Shown: positions 1 to 19,320 of the stretch, in pieces
Position numbering within the stretch: position 1 is the first letter of the stretch
How the letters are laid out: the number at the start of each line of letters is the position of its first letter
Virus record (IMG/VR): IMGVR_UViG_3300045988_032762
Span: 1 to 19,320 of that record
Direction: 5' to 3' (one strand)
Length of the DNA: 19,320 bases
Source: a virus
The notes under the pieces: generated by a model
What the model was told of the DNA's origin: nothing
The model's input: the letters and a program-made list of their open reading frames with translations, nothing else
Database searches by the model: none
Made by a program: the position numbers and the translations under genes

Positions 1-22
1 ATTGTTAATCATTTTATTTTTT
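1..22. repeat. Terminal 22-mer, an inverted copy of 184..205 (mirrored at 19299..19320 and 19116..19137)
   Basis: ATTGTTAATCATTTTATTTTTT at 1..22 is the exact reverse complement of AAAAAATAAAATGATTAACAAT at 184..205. That segment is the A-rich leader plus the first four codons of the ITR gene. Confidence 0.9.
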
Positions 23-66
23 TTTGTTCTGTGGCGTCTTTGTCGCTTTGTTGTGTTTCTTGTCTT

Positions 67-95
67 ATTATATTTTTTTCGCGCCAGTTTGTCAA
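67..95 (-). promoter_or_regulatory. Outward-facing consensus sigma-70/sigma-A promoter in the left ITR
   Basis: On the minus strand: TTGACA (90..95), a 17-nt spacer, then TATAAT (67..72). It points towards position 1, so the transcript would run off the end after about 60 nt. Confidence 0.6.
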
Positions 96-126
96 GTTTT
101 TTTATTTCCGGCGTGTCGTTTGTTTT

Positions 127-158
127 CGGGCGTGTCGTGTTTTTGTTTGTGTTATAGT
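127..158 (+). promoter_or_regulatory. ITR promoter P1 (extended -10 TGtTATAGT) for the 66-aa gene; mirror at 19163..19194 (-)
   Basis: TGTTATAGT at 150..158. The CGGGCGTGTCGT motif puts GCGTGT at the -35 position with a 17-nt spacer. Downstream come the RBS CAAGGGAAAGG and the ATG at 194. Confidence 0.55.
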
Positions 159-193
159 GTAGTTATCAGCTTCAAGGGAAAGGAAAAAATAAA

Positions 194-394
194 ATGATTA
201 ACAATAGCATCATCAAGGATTACGTCGAAGATTACATCATGAACAGCGGTCAGCAGCTCGACGATTTTGACCTTGACATGATTGTTGAGAATCTGCATCA
301 TGTGGCTGTGGTCAATAATATGACCATTGAGGATTATAACGATTGTGATTCGTTTCCGAATGATGATTTTATTGAAGCGTTCGAGAATGCGTGA
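194..394 (+). CDS. Hyper-acidic 66-aa protein encoded in the ITR (left copy); function unknown, candidate DNA mimic
   Basis: The ORF has an RBS, its own promoter and its own terminator. It has 11 Asp and 5 Glu against 1 Lys and 0 Arg. An identical copy lies at 18927..19127. Confidence 0.8.
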   Translation: MINNSIIKDYVEDYIMNSGQQLDDFDLDMIVENLHHVAVVNNMTIEDYNDCDSFPNDDFIEAFENA

Positions 395-407
395 TAGGTA
401 ATAGTAG

Positions 408-440
408 AAGCCTCTCGGTTAATAACTGGGAGGCTTTTTT
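408..440 (+). terminator. Intrinsic terminator after the ITR gene; mirror at 18881..18913 (-)
   Basis: AAGCCTC (408..414) pairs with GAGGCTT (430..436) and is followed by TTTT. Confidence 0.7.
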
Positions 441-454
441 ATGTTGTTTTGTTT

Positions 455-487
455 TCGGGCGTGTCGTTGTTTTGTTTATGCTATAAT
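455..487 (+). promoter_or_regulatory. ITR promoter P2 (extended -10 TGcTATAAT); mirror at 18834..18866 (-)
   Basis: TGCTATAAT at 479..487. The CGGGCGTGTCGT motif again puts GCGTGT 17 nt upstream. Next come the RBS CAAGGGAGG and the ATG at 520, where the ITR ends. Confidence 0.6.
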
Positions 488-519
488 GAAAAATATCGAC
501 TACAAGGGAGGTAAATAAA

Positions 520-762
520 ATGATGATTTCAAATATGACTTTCAAGGAAAAGAACGAACTGCTGACCACTTTGTGGGACGACCCGTCCGTGACGCTTCAT
601 GGCGTCAAGGACGGTGTTACGAGTTCGATTGATCGTGATCAGGTTGTTGGTGATTATGTCGTGGCTCTGTATGATTCGTATCAGTTTATATTGCCCTATG
701 AAACAGAAGATGTGCTTCTGTTTTCCGCTGAAGATATGGAGGCGTTCGCTCGGACGTGGTAA
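520..762 (+). CDS. Acidic 80-aa protein of unknown function, specific to the left arm and driven by ITR promoter P2
   Basis: The ORF uses the RBS and ATG supplied by the ITR. It has about 15 acidic and 5 basic residues. A strong hairpin terminator follows. Confidence 0.7.
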   Translation: MMISNMTFKEKNELLTTLWDDPSVTLHGVKDGVTSSIDRDQVVGDYVVALYDSYQFILPYETEDVLLFSAEDMEAFARTW

Positions 763-766
763 TAAT

Positions 767-800
767 AAAGCCCCTAGGTGAGTAACCTAGGGGCTTATTT
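767..800. terminator. Bidirectional intrinsic terminator between convergent genes
   Basis: AAAGCCCCTAGG (767..778) pairs with CCTAGGGGCTT (786..796). T/A runs flank it on both strands. It sits between the 520..762 (+) gene and the endolysin (-). Confidence 0.75.
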
Positions 801-4315: not shown

Positions 4316-5761
4316 TTAGTGGAAGCAGTTCATGGAGAAATCAAAATCAAGATATCCCGCACTACCGTCGCCTTGCAGCATGTCAATGATGCTGAACGAC
4401 CGGCCGTTAAACTTGATTTTAACGTATCCTTCATTGGACTCTTTGACCCCAAATAGTGGTATCCAATTACCGAACACGTTAGCCTCGTTGACCGTGGCGA
4501 AAACGTCCGTATTCCAAGTGGTTTTGTTGCCACGGAAATAAAAATGGACATCCAGCCCGTCAACGAACACCTTCAGGAAGCCATCTGCAATACCGGACAA
4601 CGTGACGTTGGAATACTCTTCGACTCGTTTCGCCACACCGGTTTTAATGCCTTTTGCGACATACTGCGCATAAATATCCGAGCCTTGAGTATTGGGGTGG
4701 ATATCAGTCATACCGGACTTCCAAAACAGACCCCACGATGGTGCATCGTACACGATCTTAACGACGGCACGACGTCCACCCTCGACCATGGCACCGTATT
4801 TTTGAGCCTCGTTGAAGGTTGGCCACGTATTGTCCCACATCATTGGAATCTGTACGATCTCCGCGTCGGGAAACAATGTTTTCGCAGTGGTAAGCGTGTT
4901 GTAGACAATGTCTCCCGTCACCATTGACGGCGAATCGTTGCGGCCACCGCCGATCACCACGTATCTCACATTGGCCTTGCTTGCACCCAGTTCCGCCGAT
5001 GCTTGCTGGAGTTGCTGTTTAAACGTTTTACCCTTTGTGCCGCCAATCGTATAACCTGAACCGCCGACCGCATAATTGCGGCATTCCAGCCCCAAGAGTC
5101 CTGCCGCCTTGACAATCATACTGTCCGTGGCTGGATTGTCGGTACGAAAACCTTCGAAGTACGAGTCGCCAATGCCCACGAGTAGATTCTGTTCGACCGG
5201 TTTGAGCGCATATTTGCCGTCCGATTCCAACTTGGTGTACGTGTTGTCCCAACGGGCTTTTTTGGCGGTCGCATTTTTTACATTGTCCGCGCCAAGTGCG
5301 GTGAGAATCGCACTGTTTGAGTCAGCTTTACTGTTGGCAGTGTCCGCCTTGCTGATTGCGGACGTGGCGTCCGTTCCGGCCTTATCCCACTTGGTTTTAT
5401 TTGCTGTGGCGTGTGCGGTGGTGTCCGCGCCCAGTGCGGTGAGGATAGCCGTATTGCCATTGGCCTTGCTTACGGCGCTTGCTGCGTCCGCCATTGCTTC
5501 AACGGCGTCCGTGCCGGCCTTATCCCACTTGGCTTTCGCTGCGGTGGCGTTATCCACCGTATTGTCCACAAGCAGTGCCTTCATCACTGCTTCGTCATGG
5601 GTTTCTCGCGCTTCCACGCCTTCGATGCGATTCAGGTGCGTTTCCAAAGTTGTATCAATGGTGTGCATGGAGCCGTTGTAGCCGTCTCGCAGATCGGCGG
5701 GGTCGTTATCGCCATAGAGATTGAGGCCGTAATTATCGGTTTTTGTATATACGGTAGCCAT
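4316..5761 (-). CDS. Tail fibre/appendage (receptor-binding) protein: N-terminal adaptor motif, 46-aa repeats, SGNH/GDSL esterase domain and C-terminal beta-rich domain
   Basis: SGNH blocks GIGDSYFEG, GGSGY, GGGRND and DIHPN. Tandem repeats contain KWDKAGTDA...AILTALGAD. The position corresponds to phi29 gene 12. Confidence 0.75.
   Translation of the reverse strand: MATVYTKTDNYGLNLYGDNDPADLRDGYNGSMHTIDTTLETHLNRIEGVEARETHDEAVMKALLVDNTVDNATAAKAKWDKAGTDAVEAMADAASAVSKANGNTAILTALGADTTAHATANKTKWDKAGTDATSAISKADTANSKADSNSAILTALGADNVKNATAKKARWDNTYTKLESDGKYALKPVEQNLLVGIGDSYFEGFRTDNPATDSMIVKAAGLLGLECRNYAVGGSGYTIGGTKGKTFKQQLQQASAELGASKANVRYVVIGGGRNDSPSMVTGDIVYNTLTTAKTLFPDAEIVQIPMMWDNTWPTFNEAQKYGAMVEGGRRAVVKIVYDAPSWGLFWKSGMTDIHPNTQGSDIYAQYVAKGIKTGVAKRVEEYSNVTLSGIADGFLKVFVDGLDVHFYFRGNKTTWNTDVFATVNEANVFGNWIPLFGVKESNEGYVKIKFNGRSFSIIDMLQGDGSAGYLDFDFSMNCFH
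5246..5554. repeat. Tandem 138-bp (46-aa) repeats, about 2.3 copies, inside the fibre gene
   Basis: CCGGCCTTATCCCACTTGG occurs at 5376..5394 and 5514..5532. GTCCGC... occurs at 5285 and 5423. The period is 138 bp. Confidence 0.85.
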
Positions 5762-12810: not shown

Positions 12811-13092
12811 TTAGTCGAATAGATCTTCGATGGACTCTTGGGTTTCGTCGCCGTCACCGTCATTGTCGGTTGGGGCGGGTTCGGTGTATCCGAGCGTGTC
12901 CATCATGGCCTTGAGCGCGGCCAATTCCTTCTCGATCGAATCAAGTCGCGCGCTCACGTCCGGTTCGGACGGTTCCGGTTCCTGCTCAGGTCCTTTCGGC
13001 TTGATTTCATCATCGACGGTTTCGGTTCGCTTCTCTTCTTCGGTGGGCGGCGGGGTGGTGTTTTCGTCGCTCTCATTGTTTGGGTCTGCCAT
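12811..13092 (-). CDS. Scaffolding protein (gp7 analogue)
   Basis: 93 aa, very acidic, helical or low-complexity, immediately upstream of the capsid gene. It has an AGGAG RBS. Confidence 0.6.
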   Translation of the reverse strand: MADPNNESDENTTPPPTEEEKRTETVDDEIKPKGPEQEPEPSEPDVSARLDSIEKELAALKAMMDTLGYTEPAPTDNDGDGDETQESIEDLFD

Positions 13093-17447: not shown

Positions 17448-17651
17448 TTAAAATTCCAGTCCCTCACTATCAGACTCGGCACCGAGCCACCACATGTCAA
17501 ACCACAAGTCCGTACTCGGACACCGTTTCGGCGGTGTAAAAGCGTCACCCTTACGTTTCGCTCCCGCCCAAAACACACGCAAACGCCAATACACATCCGC
17601 ATAAGCGCAGTCCTTGCAAATCCACGAATGCATAAACCCACGAAAATACAT
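17448..17651 (-). CDS. Trp-rich 67-aa early protein with a CxxC motif, function unknown
   Basis: The ORF is packed tightly against its neighbours. This frame is preferred over the overlapping 17438..17641 frame because its junctions fit. Confidence 0.55.
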   Translation of the reverse strand: MYFRGFMHSWICKDCAYADVYWRLRVFWAGAKRKGDAFTPPKRCPSTDLWFDMWWLGAESDSEGLEF

Positions 17652-17653
17652 GA

Positions 17654-17899
17654 CTAATCCCTATCCAATAATGGCGTACGTGCGATATCGATAGCGTCCA
17701 ACATAAGATCAACCACCTGACTACCATCACCCGCATCATACGCACACAATGCAGTCGCATTGCAAAACCCGGCTGAAGTGCGGAATCGGACGGCATACCT
17801 CAACTCATACCGTTGACCGTGAGGACAATACCACAATCCCACATTACCCCCCACAAACTGCGAGGAAAACGTAGCAACCTTCATATCATGCTCAGCCAT
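17654..17899 (-). CDS. 81-aa early protein, function unknown
   Basis: ORF with a GAAAGG RBS, tightly packed against its neighbours. Confidence 0.6.
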   Translation of the reverse strand: MAEHDMKVATFSSQFVGGNVGLWYCPHGQRYELRYAVRFRTSAGFCNATALCAYDAGDGSQVVDLMLDAIDIARTPLLDRD

Positions 17900-18558: not shown

Positions 18559-18801
18559 TCAGTGAATCAAGGCGTCGGATACCGCTTCCGCGATAGTATC
18601 CCCAGTTCCCAAGACAACGGCAGGGCTGCAATAATCAGCGTAAACGGCATAAAACACATCAACCGCGTCCACCTTACATCCATCTTCGGTAGTGCGATAG
18701 TATGGCATCTCAACCCTCTTGACGCAAGCGCGCGCCATCAATTCCCGCACACTCTCGATACTAACGACAGCTTCCTTTGCGATTTGCTTATAATTTTCCA
18801 T
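18559..18801 (-). CDS. 80-aa first gene of the right-arm early operon; its promoter, RBS and ATG come from the ITR
   Basis: The ATG at 18801..18799 is the last triplet of the right ITR. C-terminal GTGDTIAEAVSDAL loosely resembles small alpha/beta HicB-like folds. Confidence 0.7.
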   Translation of the reverse strand: MENYKQIAKEAVVSIESVRELMARACVKRVEMPYYRTTEDGCKVDAVDVFYAVYADYCSPAVVLGTGDTIAEAVSDALIH

Positions 18802-18926
18802 TTTATTTACCTCCCTTGTAGTCGATATTTTTCATTATAGCATAAACAAAACAACGACACGCCCGAAAACAAAACAACATAAAAAAGCCTCCCAGTTATT
18901 AACCGAGAGGCTTCTACTATTACCTA

Positions 18927-19127
18927 TCACGCATTCTCGAACGCTTCAATAAAATCATCATTCGGAAACGAATCACAATCGTTATAATCCTCAATGGTCA
19001 TATTATTGACCACAGCCACATGATGCAGATTCTCAACAATCATGTCAAGGTCAAAATCGTCGAGCTGCTGACCGCTGTTCATGATGTAATCTTCGACGTA
19101 ATCCTTGATGATGCTATTGTTAATCAT
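18927..19127 (-). CDS. Hyper-acidic 66-aa ITR protein (right copy, identical to 194..394)
   Basis: The translation in the ORF track is identical, and it lies inside the perfect ITR. Confidence 0.8.
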   Translation of the reverse strand: MINNSIIKDYVEDYIMNSGQQLDDFDLDMIVENLHHVAVVNNMTIEDYNDCDSFPNDDFIEAFENA

Positions 19128-19225
19128 TTTATTTTTTCCTTTCCCTTGAAGCTGATAACTACACTATAACACAAACAAAAACACGACACGCCCGAAAACA
19201 AACGACACGCCGGAAATAAAAAAAC

Positions 19226-19254
19226 TTGACAAACTGGCGCGAAAAAAATATAAT
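19226..19254 (+). promoter_or_regulatory. Outward-facing consensus promoter in the right ITR (mirror of 67..95)
   Basis: TTGACA at 19226..19231, a 17-nt spacer, TATAAT at 19249..19254. It points towards the right terminus. Confidence 0.6.
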
Positions 19255-19320
19255 AAGACAAGAAACACAACAAAGCGACAAAGACGCCACAGAACAAAAA
19301 AAAATAAAATGATTAACAAT

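Follow-up and report, generated by a model that had tools for sequence, protein, structure and literature searches.

A small acidic protein encoded in the inverted terminal repeats of a phi29-like Bifidobacterium phage: a candidate inhibitor of a host DNA-binding protein

Introduction

A linear phage genome that carries, close to each of its ends, the same gene for a very acidic protein of 66 amino acids (aa) raises two questions: what does the protein do, and how did its gene come to be present twice? The genome is the window analysed here, i.e., the whole 19,320-bp stretch of the IMG/VR virus record IMGVR_UViG_3300045988_032762, which is an essentially complete linear genome with a perfect inverted terminal repeat (ITR). 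By its sequence the phage is a phi29-like, protein-primed Bifidobacterium podophage. At each terminus an early-type promoter is followed first of all by the 66-aa gene, whose product constitutes a new orphan family. It is proposed here, tentatively and at a level somewhat short of probable, that the protein is an inhibitor of a host DNA-binding protein. An earlier note on this DNA, made from the letters alone, had pointed to a DNA mimic or anti-defence factor; an inhibitor that serves anti-defence or host takeover is plausible. Coordinates of the features discussed are collected in Table 1.

Results and Discussion

The 66-aa protein and its family

The translation of the left copy of the gene is MINNSIIKDYVEDYIMNSGQQLDDFDLDMIVENLHHVAVVNNMTIEDYNDCDSFPNDDFIEAFENA. 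It contains 11 Asp, 5 Glu, 1 Lys, 2 His and no Arg residues, and has a net charge of -15 and an isoelectric point (pI) of about 4.05. The recomputed composition agrees with that given in the earlier note (16 of 66 residues Asp or Glu, a single Lys, no Arg, net charge -15). Per residue the protein is the second most acidic of the genome, and it is extreme among the early genes.

Homologues form 194 clusters at 90% identity in a set of 5.8 billion proteins. Nearly all are exactly 66 aa in length and are found on phage contigs of 16-19 kb. In an alignment of 17 gene sequences, the variable columns at codon positions 1, 2 and 3 number 24, 19 and 54, respectively. The dN/dS ratio has a mean of 0.12 and a median of 0.14 over 133 pairs (mean dS near 1). 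Judged from these substitutions, the 66-aa open reading frame (ORF) is a genuine protein gene under purifying selection.

Acidity is a property of the whole family. In 125 full-length homologues the net charge ranges from -13 to -20, with a median of -15, and the acidic residues D9, E12, D13, D28, E32, E46, D50, D52, D57, D58, E61 and E64 are each conserved in at least 96% of the sequences. The single Lys8 and Cys51 are conserved to the same degree. Positions 21, 23, 47 and 49, on the other hand, are hypervariable and display 7-11 residue types each; the hypervariable positions adjoin the invariant motif Y48-x-D50-C51-D52.

The family is a narrow one. Among 1.84 billion representative sequences a profile search found 20 clusters (50% identity), most of which are variants with a truncation or frameshift. 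A broadened profile search gave 294 matches, and of the 120 listed none was annotated or had a Pfam domain. No copy was found in 185,579 species-representative bacterial genomes (GTDB), and a tblastn search with the 66-aa protein against cultured phages gave no match.

Predicted structure and comparison with known inhibitors

The AlphaFold2 model, made with a 27-sequence alignment, has a pLDDT of 94.9 and a pTM of 0.80. It displays helices at residues 4-17, 27-40, 48-53 and 56-64 together with one beta-bridge, and is thus all-alpha. With high confidence the 66-aa product is predicted to be a compact four-helix domain, and in the model the 12 near-invariant Asp/Glu residues sit, with similarly high confidence, on helices 1-4 and the loops.

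Foldseek searches with the model found no match with an E value <1. The best matches had E values of 3.6 (PDB) and 1.7 (BFVD), the TM score was at most 0.53, and no known inhibitor was found. The PDB library is expected to hold structures of p56, Ugi, SAUGI, Ocr, ArdA, Arn, Gam, gp5.9 and Im7/Im9. At the sequence level neither the single protein nor the profile had a match in Pfam (E up to 10), PHROGs or PADLOC, and in scans of the protein and its neighbours nothing came near threshold; searches of PDB chains by phmmer or profile (E up to 10) returned one unrelated portal protein only, with an E value of 1.1. A literature search found nothing on these small proteins.

The candidate families were also considered individually. 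The p56 family showed no sequence match, and its fold, a small dimeric beta-sheet plus helix, differs from the all-alpha model. Ugi and SAUGI have an alpha/beta fold with an antiparallel sheet, again as opposed to all-alpha, and were not matched by Foldseek. Ocr (T7 gp0.3) gave no Pfam match at E values up to 10 and no Foldseek match in PDB or BFVD. ArdA was matched by neither Pfam nor Foldseek, and 66 aa are too few for its three-domain fold. With the Im7/Im9 immunity proteins hhalign gave a probability of 0.2% over 9 aligned columns, and no Im7/Im9 chain was found by Foldseek; the Im9 query was checked against PDB 1e0h, and the hhalign profile also contained Im7, Im2 and Im8. In the absence of any library or fold match, the 66-aa protein is therefore not a relative of p56, Ugi, Ocr, ArdA or Im7/Im9. 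The kinship with p56, Ugi, Ocr and ArdA that the earlier note had raised has to be given up, both for want of sequence matches and because the all-alpha model finds no partner in Foldseek. With the general features of the class of DNA mimics, i.e., small size, strong acidity and a pI <5, the protein does agree, having a net charge of -15 and a pI of 4.05, and its acidity is shared by the family as a whole.

Identity of the phage

Several proteins place the phage. The families matched are DNA_pol_B_2 by the polymerase (E 2.4e-26), Podovirus_Gp16 by the packaging ATPase (E 1.6e-45) and Phi29_Phage_SSB by the single-stranded DNA-binding protein (SSB). All three confirm the phi29 phage group to which the earlier note had assigned the DNA. 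The putative terminal protein has 356 aa, a pI of 10.5 and a net charge of +34, and occupies the terminal-protein position upstream of the polymerase. Nearly all genes run leftward from the right end, and only the two small left-end genes run rightward. The closest cultured relative is the Bifidobacterium pseudocatenulatum phage BP1, with 85.6% identity across 79% of the window; next among cultured phages come BD811P1-3, which infect B. dentium.

Promoter, ribosome binding site and terminator of the gene

The 66-aa gene is diploid in the window because it lies wholly inside the terminal repeat (194-394 in 1-522). The two ITR copies reported in the earlier note are indeed present here, the second at 18927..19127 on the minus strand of a perfect 522-nt ITR, but they are not a fixed property of the family, as is described in the next section.

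Upstream of the gene is a promoter-like block, P1, whose extended -10 sequence, TGTTATAGT, is situated 36 nt upstream of the ATG. The -10 columns are invariant in 7 relatives, as is the core of the block. A similar block, P2, with the extended -10 sequence TGCTATAAT, follows the 66-aa gene and drives the next gene at each end. The right-arm P2 heads the leftward string of genes that includes those for the SSB, the putative terminal protein and the DNA polymerase. A scan with a two-hexamer consensus found no canonical sigma-70 -35/-10 pair upstream of position 194 on the plus strand. The claim that the gene has its own promoter thus holds as an extended -10 in a 41-nt block that is conserved in relatives, but not as a two-hexamer promoter detected by the scan.

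The sequence GGCGTGTCG is found upstream of the extended -10s. The window contains it 6 times, as against 0.27 expected, and each time within an ITR; its core columns are invariant in relatives. The box could be an operator, an activator site or an unusual substitute for a -35 element. The context from ribosome binding site (RBS) to ATG, AAATAAAATGAT, is identical at positions 187-198 and 513-524.

The terminator that the earlier note had also ascribed to the gene is present at 406-438 and is a strong one, with a 15-pair stem followed by a T-run. Five terminator-like sites are found in the region, compared with 1.1 expected from shuffled sequences. In one relative (L009) an RBS and the next early gene come directly after the 66-aa gene, without a terminator.

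An accessory cassette in a variable first slot

The 66-aa gene is absent from BP1, and BP1 has one such terminal promoter, directly before gp1. In the window the spacing between P1 and P2 is 329 nt, and the unit that is extra relative to BP1, an insertion of 329 nt, consists of the gene, the terminator and a second copy of the promoter. The 66-aa gene is therefore an accessory cassette with a direct repeat of the early promoter on either side.

Relatives differ in the placement of the cassette. In contigs 016630 and 002598 it is found at one end: the ITR is 355-360 nt long and stops at the ATG, the two ends of the contig reach the same terminal sequence, and the 66-aa gene is at the lysis-side end with a different gene at the replication-side end. 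Three further contigs have the gene at one end in the same way. In six independent IMG/VR contigs and in the window it is at both ends, and the ITR stops at the stop codon of the gene (three contigs) or further in. Since relatives carry the gene at one end or at both, with the edge of the ITR shifting accordingly, the two-copy state here looks like an expansion of the ITR over the first cassette.

In a set of 49 related loci, the first slot at the replication-side end is occupied by no fewer than 13 unrelated families. The loci are the replication-side ends of close relatives (polymerase 64-92% identical) that extend to a terminal promoter. Several occupants are acidic, namely proteins of 118 aa (net -19), 84 aa (net -11) and 77 aa (net -13) and a gp1-like protein (net -9). 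No slot-occupant family could be assigned to Pfam or PHROGs. Residence in a hypervariable slot together with other small acidic orphans is the genomic pattern to be expected of host-interaction or anti-defence genes.

Two observations on the occupants may be added. Some members of the 66-aa family are extended at the C-terminus by SGDRYELVEA, which is similar to the sequence found toward the C-terminus of the 118-aa cassette protein. In IMGVR_UViG_3300045988_012604 (L109) the first gene, at 129-308, combines the N-terminal 52 residues of the gp1-like protein with the C-terminus, DFIEAFED, of the acidic protein. This chimera suggests recombination between cassettes, or a mis-assembly.

A probable homologue in cultured phages

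Inspection of the syntenic gene in the B. dentium phages, and this alone, brought a further relative to light. The gp1 of BD811P2 (WAX06311.1, hypothetical protein) has 61 aa and a net charge of -14, and its gene is the first behind the ITR at the replication-side end. It shares with the 66-aa protein an N-terminus of the form DY(I/V)xDY(L/I)MxSG and the C-terminal motif (F/V)PxDxF. BLASTP gives an E value of 2e-5, and hhalign an E value of 2e-4 over 54 columns with ~35% identity. BD811P2 gp1 is without the invariant DCDS motif and is ~8 residues shorter in the region of helices 2-3, and its hidden Markov model (HMM) score is 13 bits. Thus it is a probable distant homologue, and because the HMM score is only 13 bits the case for homology draws partly on synteny. 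The perfect ITR prefix of BD811P2 is 55 nt and reaches 1-2 nt past the start codon, so that the gene is outside the ITR.

Counterparts are found in BD811P1 and BD811P3, at the very end of the records, which stop inside the gene. IMG/VR has no close relatives of the BD811P homologue. The B. dentium phages have a strongly acidic first gene at each end, at 51-236 and 17460-17777 in BD811P2 (L116) and at 17470-17619 and 54-317 in BD811P1 (L117). The second BD811P first gene encodes 105 aa with a net charge of -19, and by eye it looks similar, toward the C-terminus, to the 118-aa slot occupant of metagenomic contigs.

Proposed function and its alternatives

That small acidic phage proteins act as DNA mimics toward host DNA-binding proteins is well documented (PMC9836394, PMC8892312, PMC7064336).

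For the protein described here the following course of events may be proposed. Host RNA polymerase would start at the extended -10 promoter P1, and the 66-aa protein would be the first phage product made on infection. With its gene duplicated in the ITR, the product would come first whichever end of the genome enters, and at double gene dosage. It would then act as a stoichiometric inhibitor whose polyanionic carboxylate surface covers the site at which a host protein binds nucleic acid. The likeliest target would be a defence nuclease or complex, either of restriction-modification or of CRISPR-Cas, and a DNA-repair, nucleoid or transcription protein would be the alternative. The variable positions next to the Y-x-DCD motif may tune specificity. 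Both restriction-modification and CRISPR-Cas are common in Bifidobacterium. A target in defence is favoured because the hypervariable slot is filled with acidic orphans; taken as a claim of its own within the proposal it is nevertheless doubtful.

Several points weigh against inhibition of a host DNA-binding protein. P1 has an extended -10 only, with no recognisable -35 element, and early timing is deduced from promoter similarity and position. Searches of Pfam, PHROGs, PADLOC, PDB and BFVD turned up no characterised inhibitor similar in sequence or fold. Acidity alone is weak evidence, as many small phage proteins of unrelated function are acidic, and the most acidic one here, the product of 12811..13092, has a scaffold-like position. 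Moreover, the BD811P homologue implies a lineage that is older and wider than that of a purely sporadic accessory gene, and is compatible with a role internal to the phage.

Of the other explanations, a host-takeover factor fares best, and is rather unlikely. Such a factor would bind host RNA polymerase or sigma, a nucleoid protein (HU or Lsr2-like), or a replication or division protein, and T4 AsiA, T7 Gp2 and SPO1 Gp44/Gp46 are precedents. The position as first gene behind a terminal promoter, together with a small, folded and acidic product, is as expected of a takeover factor, and the AT-rich ends (36% GC) would be natural targets of xenogeneic silencers, bifidobacteria having high-GC genomes. 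However, functions directed at conserved host machinery are usually core, whereas here the slot is hypervariable and the gene is missing from close relatives; Foldseek against the PDB also found no fold similarity to AsiA, Gp2, Gp44 or Gp46.

A strict B-DNA mimic that blocks a specific enzyme is a narrower form of the inhibitor proposed above, and should be considered unlikely, also when a defence target is granted and the mimic is taken to be of the p56, Ocr or ArdA kind. It would be either a p56-like inhibitor of uracil-DNA glycosylase (UDG) or an anti-restriction protein of the Ocr/ArdA type. The phage belongs to the same group as phi29, the protein resembles p56 in size, charge and early position, and its acidic residues are conserved. 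Against this, the all-alpha model has no PDB match and the sequence has none in Pfam or the PDB. In addition, a UDG inhibitor that protects replication would be expected in all close relatives, but BP1 and most related contigs are without the gene.

The protein might instead serve the phage itself, as an acidic chaperone or partner of the putative terminal protein or of the initiation of replication at the termini. In its favour, the putative terminal protein is very strongly basic (net +34, pI 10.5), the gene is tied to the replication origins in the ITR, and the more distant BD811P phages have a syntenic probable homologue. Such a role is made improbable by the absence of the gene from phages with an 85-92% identical polymerase, by the unrelated genes that the slot holds in relatives, and by a position that varies between either end and one or both.

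Very improbable is a nuclease inhibitor like the Im7/Im9 immunity proteins of colicin-type DNases: the segment NSIIKDYVEDY resembles HSISDYTEAEF of Im9, and the four-helix layout and helix spacing are similar, but the hhalign alignment covers 9 columns at 0.2%, Foldseek found no Im7/Im9 chain although the PDB holds many, and there is no Pfam match. That the ORF encodes no functional protein and merely accompanies conserved ITR DNA, or an RNA such as the packaging RNA (pRNA), is hardly tenable. In favour of this reading, the pRNA gene of phi29 has a similar left-end position (PMC11476376), and the ITR must stay conserved for replication; it is refuted by the codon-position pattern, with substitutions concentrated at third positions, a dN/dS of ~0.13 and a frame intact over 66 codons in >100 variants, besides the confident fold and the finding in Rfam of no match at gathering scores and of sub-threshold chance matches only.

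Comparison with known systems

An inhibitor of a host DNA-binding protein, as proposed, can be compared with several known systems. Like p56, Ocr, T7 gp5.9, SPO1 Gp46/Gp44 and PBS Ugi, the 66-aa protein is small (in the range of 50-120 aa), strongly acidic and, as predicted from its promoter, early, and with p56 it has the phi29-like phage group in common. As to known folds, p56 and Ugi contain beta-sheet and Ocr is elongated, in contrast to the four helices and one beta-bridge of the model.

The T5 first-step-transfer region and the SPO1 terminal redundancy module are known for diploid terminal-repeat genes that are the first to enter and to be transcribed and that encode small host-directed proteins. 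Here too the gene is inside a terminal repeat, but the repeat is inverted, 522 bp long and contains a single gene in a protein-primed genome. The two-copy state, unlike that in T5 and SPO1, varies among close relatives. Lactococcus phage asccphi28 has an ITR of similar length (577 bp), with an inward promoter annotated at the inner edge of each ITR. That ITR is without an annotated protein gene, whereas the ITR of the window holds a full unit of promoter, gene, terminator and promoter.

There is also some likeness to acr-aca loci. A small acidic orphan heads an early unit, and on the right arm the next protein is helix-turn-helix-like (sub-threshold). The differences are the terminator and separate promoter between the genes and, on the left arm, a next gene that encodes an acidic alpha/beta protein.

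Physical ends of the genome

The earlier note had placed the gene within about 200 bp of each terminus, which is right for the contig only. The outermost window sequence, 1-22, does not align with relatives, alignment starting at about position 17 inward, and it repeats the RBS/ATG region in reverse (Table 1). Relatives and BP1 continue outward for at least 52-61 nt beyond the end of the window, and in the GenBank record of BP1 the genome meets an Illumina adapter at 292, with 236 nt from there to the first ATG. A fold-back during assembly probably produced the outermost 16-22 nt of the window as an artefact, and the contig is then not end-complete. By homology ~61 nt of true terminal sequence would be missing at the window ends. 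From the fold-back at 1-22, the extra sequence of the relatives and the adapter junction of BP1, the true distance from the physical end to the start of the acidic gene is estimated, again by homology, as ~240 nt.

It should be noted that the left end of the BP1 record as deposited, positions 1-291 (L001, PQ571273), is not a phage terminus. The 3′ end of gp1 appears there a second time, at 8-112, and positions 228-291 are Illumina adapter (...ACACTCTTTCCCTACACGACGCTCTTCCGATCT); the adapter marks the physical end, but the record is mis-trimmed.

The GC content of the left ITR is 36%, compared with 51% in the unique region.

Neighbouring and other acidic genes

Next to the left copy is the gene for an 80-aa homologue of BP1 gp1, which is strongly acidic, as the earlier note had said (net -10). 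A predicted alpha/beta fold with a pLDDT of 85.8 had no fold match in the PDB. Short DNA repeats, similar C-termini and the L109 chimera had hinted that this protein and the 66-aa protein are paralogs. No BLASTP alignment between the two was obtained, and the 80-aa fold is alpha/beta; paralogy was rejected.

On the replication-side arm the first unique gene, 18559..18801, also encodes 80 aa. Its N-terminus matches Sigma70_r4 below the curated cutoff (E 0.031), and a homologue gives an E value of 6.5e-4 at 19.6 bits against a cutoff of 24.1. From this signal the product may be an early regulator. In several relatives this gene itself fills the first slot.

The most acidic protein of the genome is the 93-aa product of 12811..13092, an ORF that has the polymerase gene on one side and the major capsid gene on the other and is thus placed like a scaffold gene.

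A search of the whole window against Rfam found no match to pRNA or any other RNA family, despite the phi29-type Gp16 ATPase, and any packaging RNA in the window, if there, is unrecognisable to current models. A 31-nt inverted repeat, 77% complementary, is found at 5198-5228 and 17782-17812, between the tail-gene region and the early region, and is probably due to chance.

Table 1. Features of the 19,320-bp window, with positions counted from its first letter
Feature	Position	Strand	Remarks
66-aa acidic protein gene, left copy	194..394	+	ORF list, translation, purifying selection, homologues, AlphaFold
66-aa acidic protein gene, right copy	18927..19127	-	identical translation
Promoter-like block P1	119..159	+	extended -10 TGTTATAGT at 150-158; 88% identity to 448-488
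Promoter-like block P2 with RBS	448..519	+	extended -10 TGCTATAAT at 479-487; 448-488 has 88% identity to 119-159
P1 copy, right ITR	19162..19202	-	repeat pairs
P2 copy, right ITR	18833..18873	-	repeat pairs, perfect ITR
Two GGCGTGTCG boxes	104..138	+	third at 452-467; 2-3 per end, upstream of extended -10s
RBS AAGGGAAAGGA	174..184	+	9 nt before ATG; read from sequence
Intrinsic terminator after 66-aa gene	406..438	+	15-pair stem (6 G-C pairs), 3-nt loop, T-run
Terminator copy, right ITR	18883..18915	-	mirror of 406-438
Bidirectional terminator closing short left-end unit	768..796		12-pair stem, called on both strands
80-aa acidic neighbour, BP1 gp1 homologue	520..762	+	15 D/E, 5 K/R, net -10; 187 homologues
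80-aa first unique gene, right (replication-side) arm	18559..18801	-	starts at ITR boundary; weak helix-turn-helix signal
93-aa ORF, most acidic protein of genome	12811..13092	-	30 Asp/Glu, net -23; no Pfam match
Left ITR	1..522		100% complementary to 18799-19320; inner edge exactly at ATG of next gene
Right ITR	18799..19320		522 nt, mirror of 1-522
Fold-back copy of RBS/ATG region	1..22 (mirror 19299-19320)		exact reverse complement of 184-205

Implications

Virulent Bifidobacterium phages have been isolated only recently, and a 2025 paper counts three cultured podophages and BP1 (PMC12694917). In the same paper, where BP1 is described, these small proteins are given no function, and a literature search found no described counter-defence protein for virulent Bifidobacterium phages.

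As key gut commensals and probiotics, bifidobacteria are of wide interest, and restriction and CRISPR barriers hinder their genetics. A further-reaching view, offered with considerable doubt, is that the 66-aa protein founds a family of polyanionic anti-defence proteins with a new fold, and that no such family was known before from Bifidobacterium phages. The first slot, with promoters on both sides, would then be a dedicated site where terminal anti-defence cassettes are rapidly exchanged, ITR expansion would copy its occupants to both ends, and the other acidic occupants (the 118/105-aa, 84-aa, 77-aa and gp1-like proteins) would inhibit different defences.

ITR edges that coincide exactly with gene edges, and that shift to swallow a gene, offer a simple model for early-gene duplication in protein-primed genomes. 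The 66-aa protein is small, predicted to be well folded and easily synthesised as a candidate inhibitor, and a defined genomic slot collects such genes. Because cultured phages, BD811P1-3, have a probable homologue, experiments are possible. The 66-aa protein is thus a tractable candidate for the first counter-defence protein of a Bifidobacterium phage.

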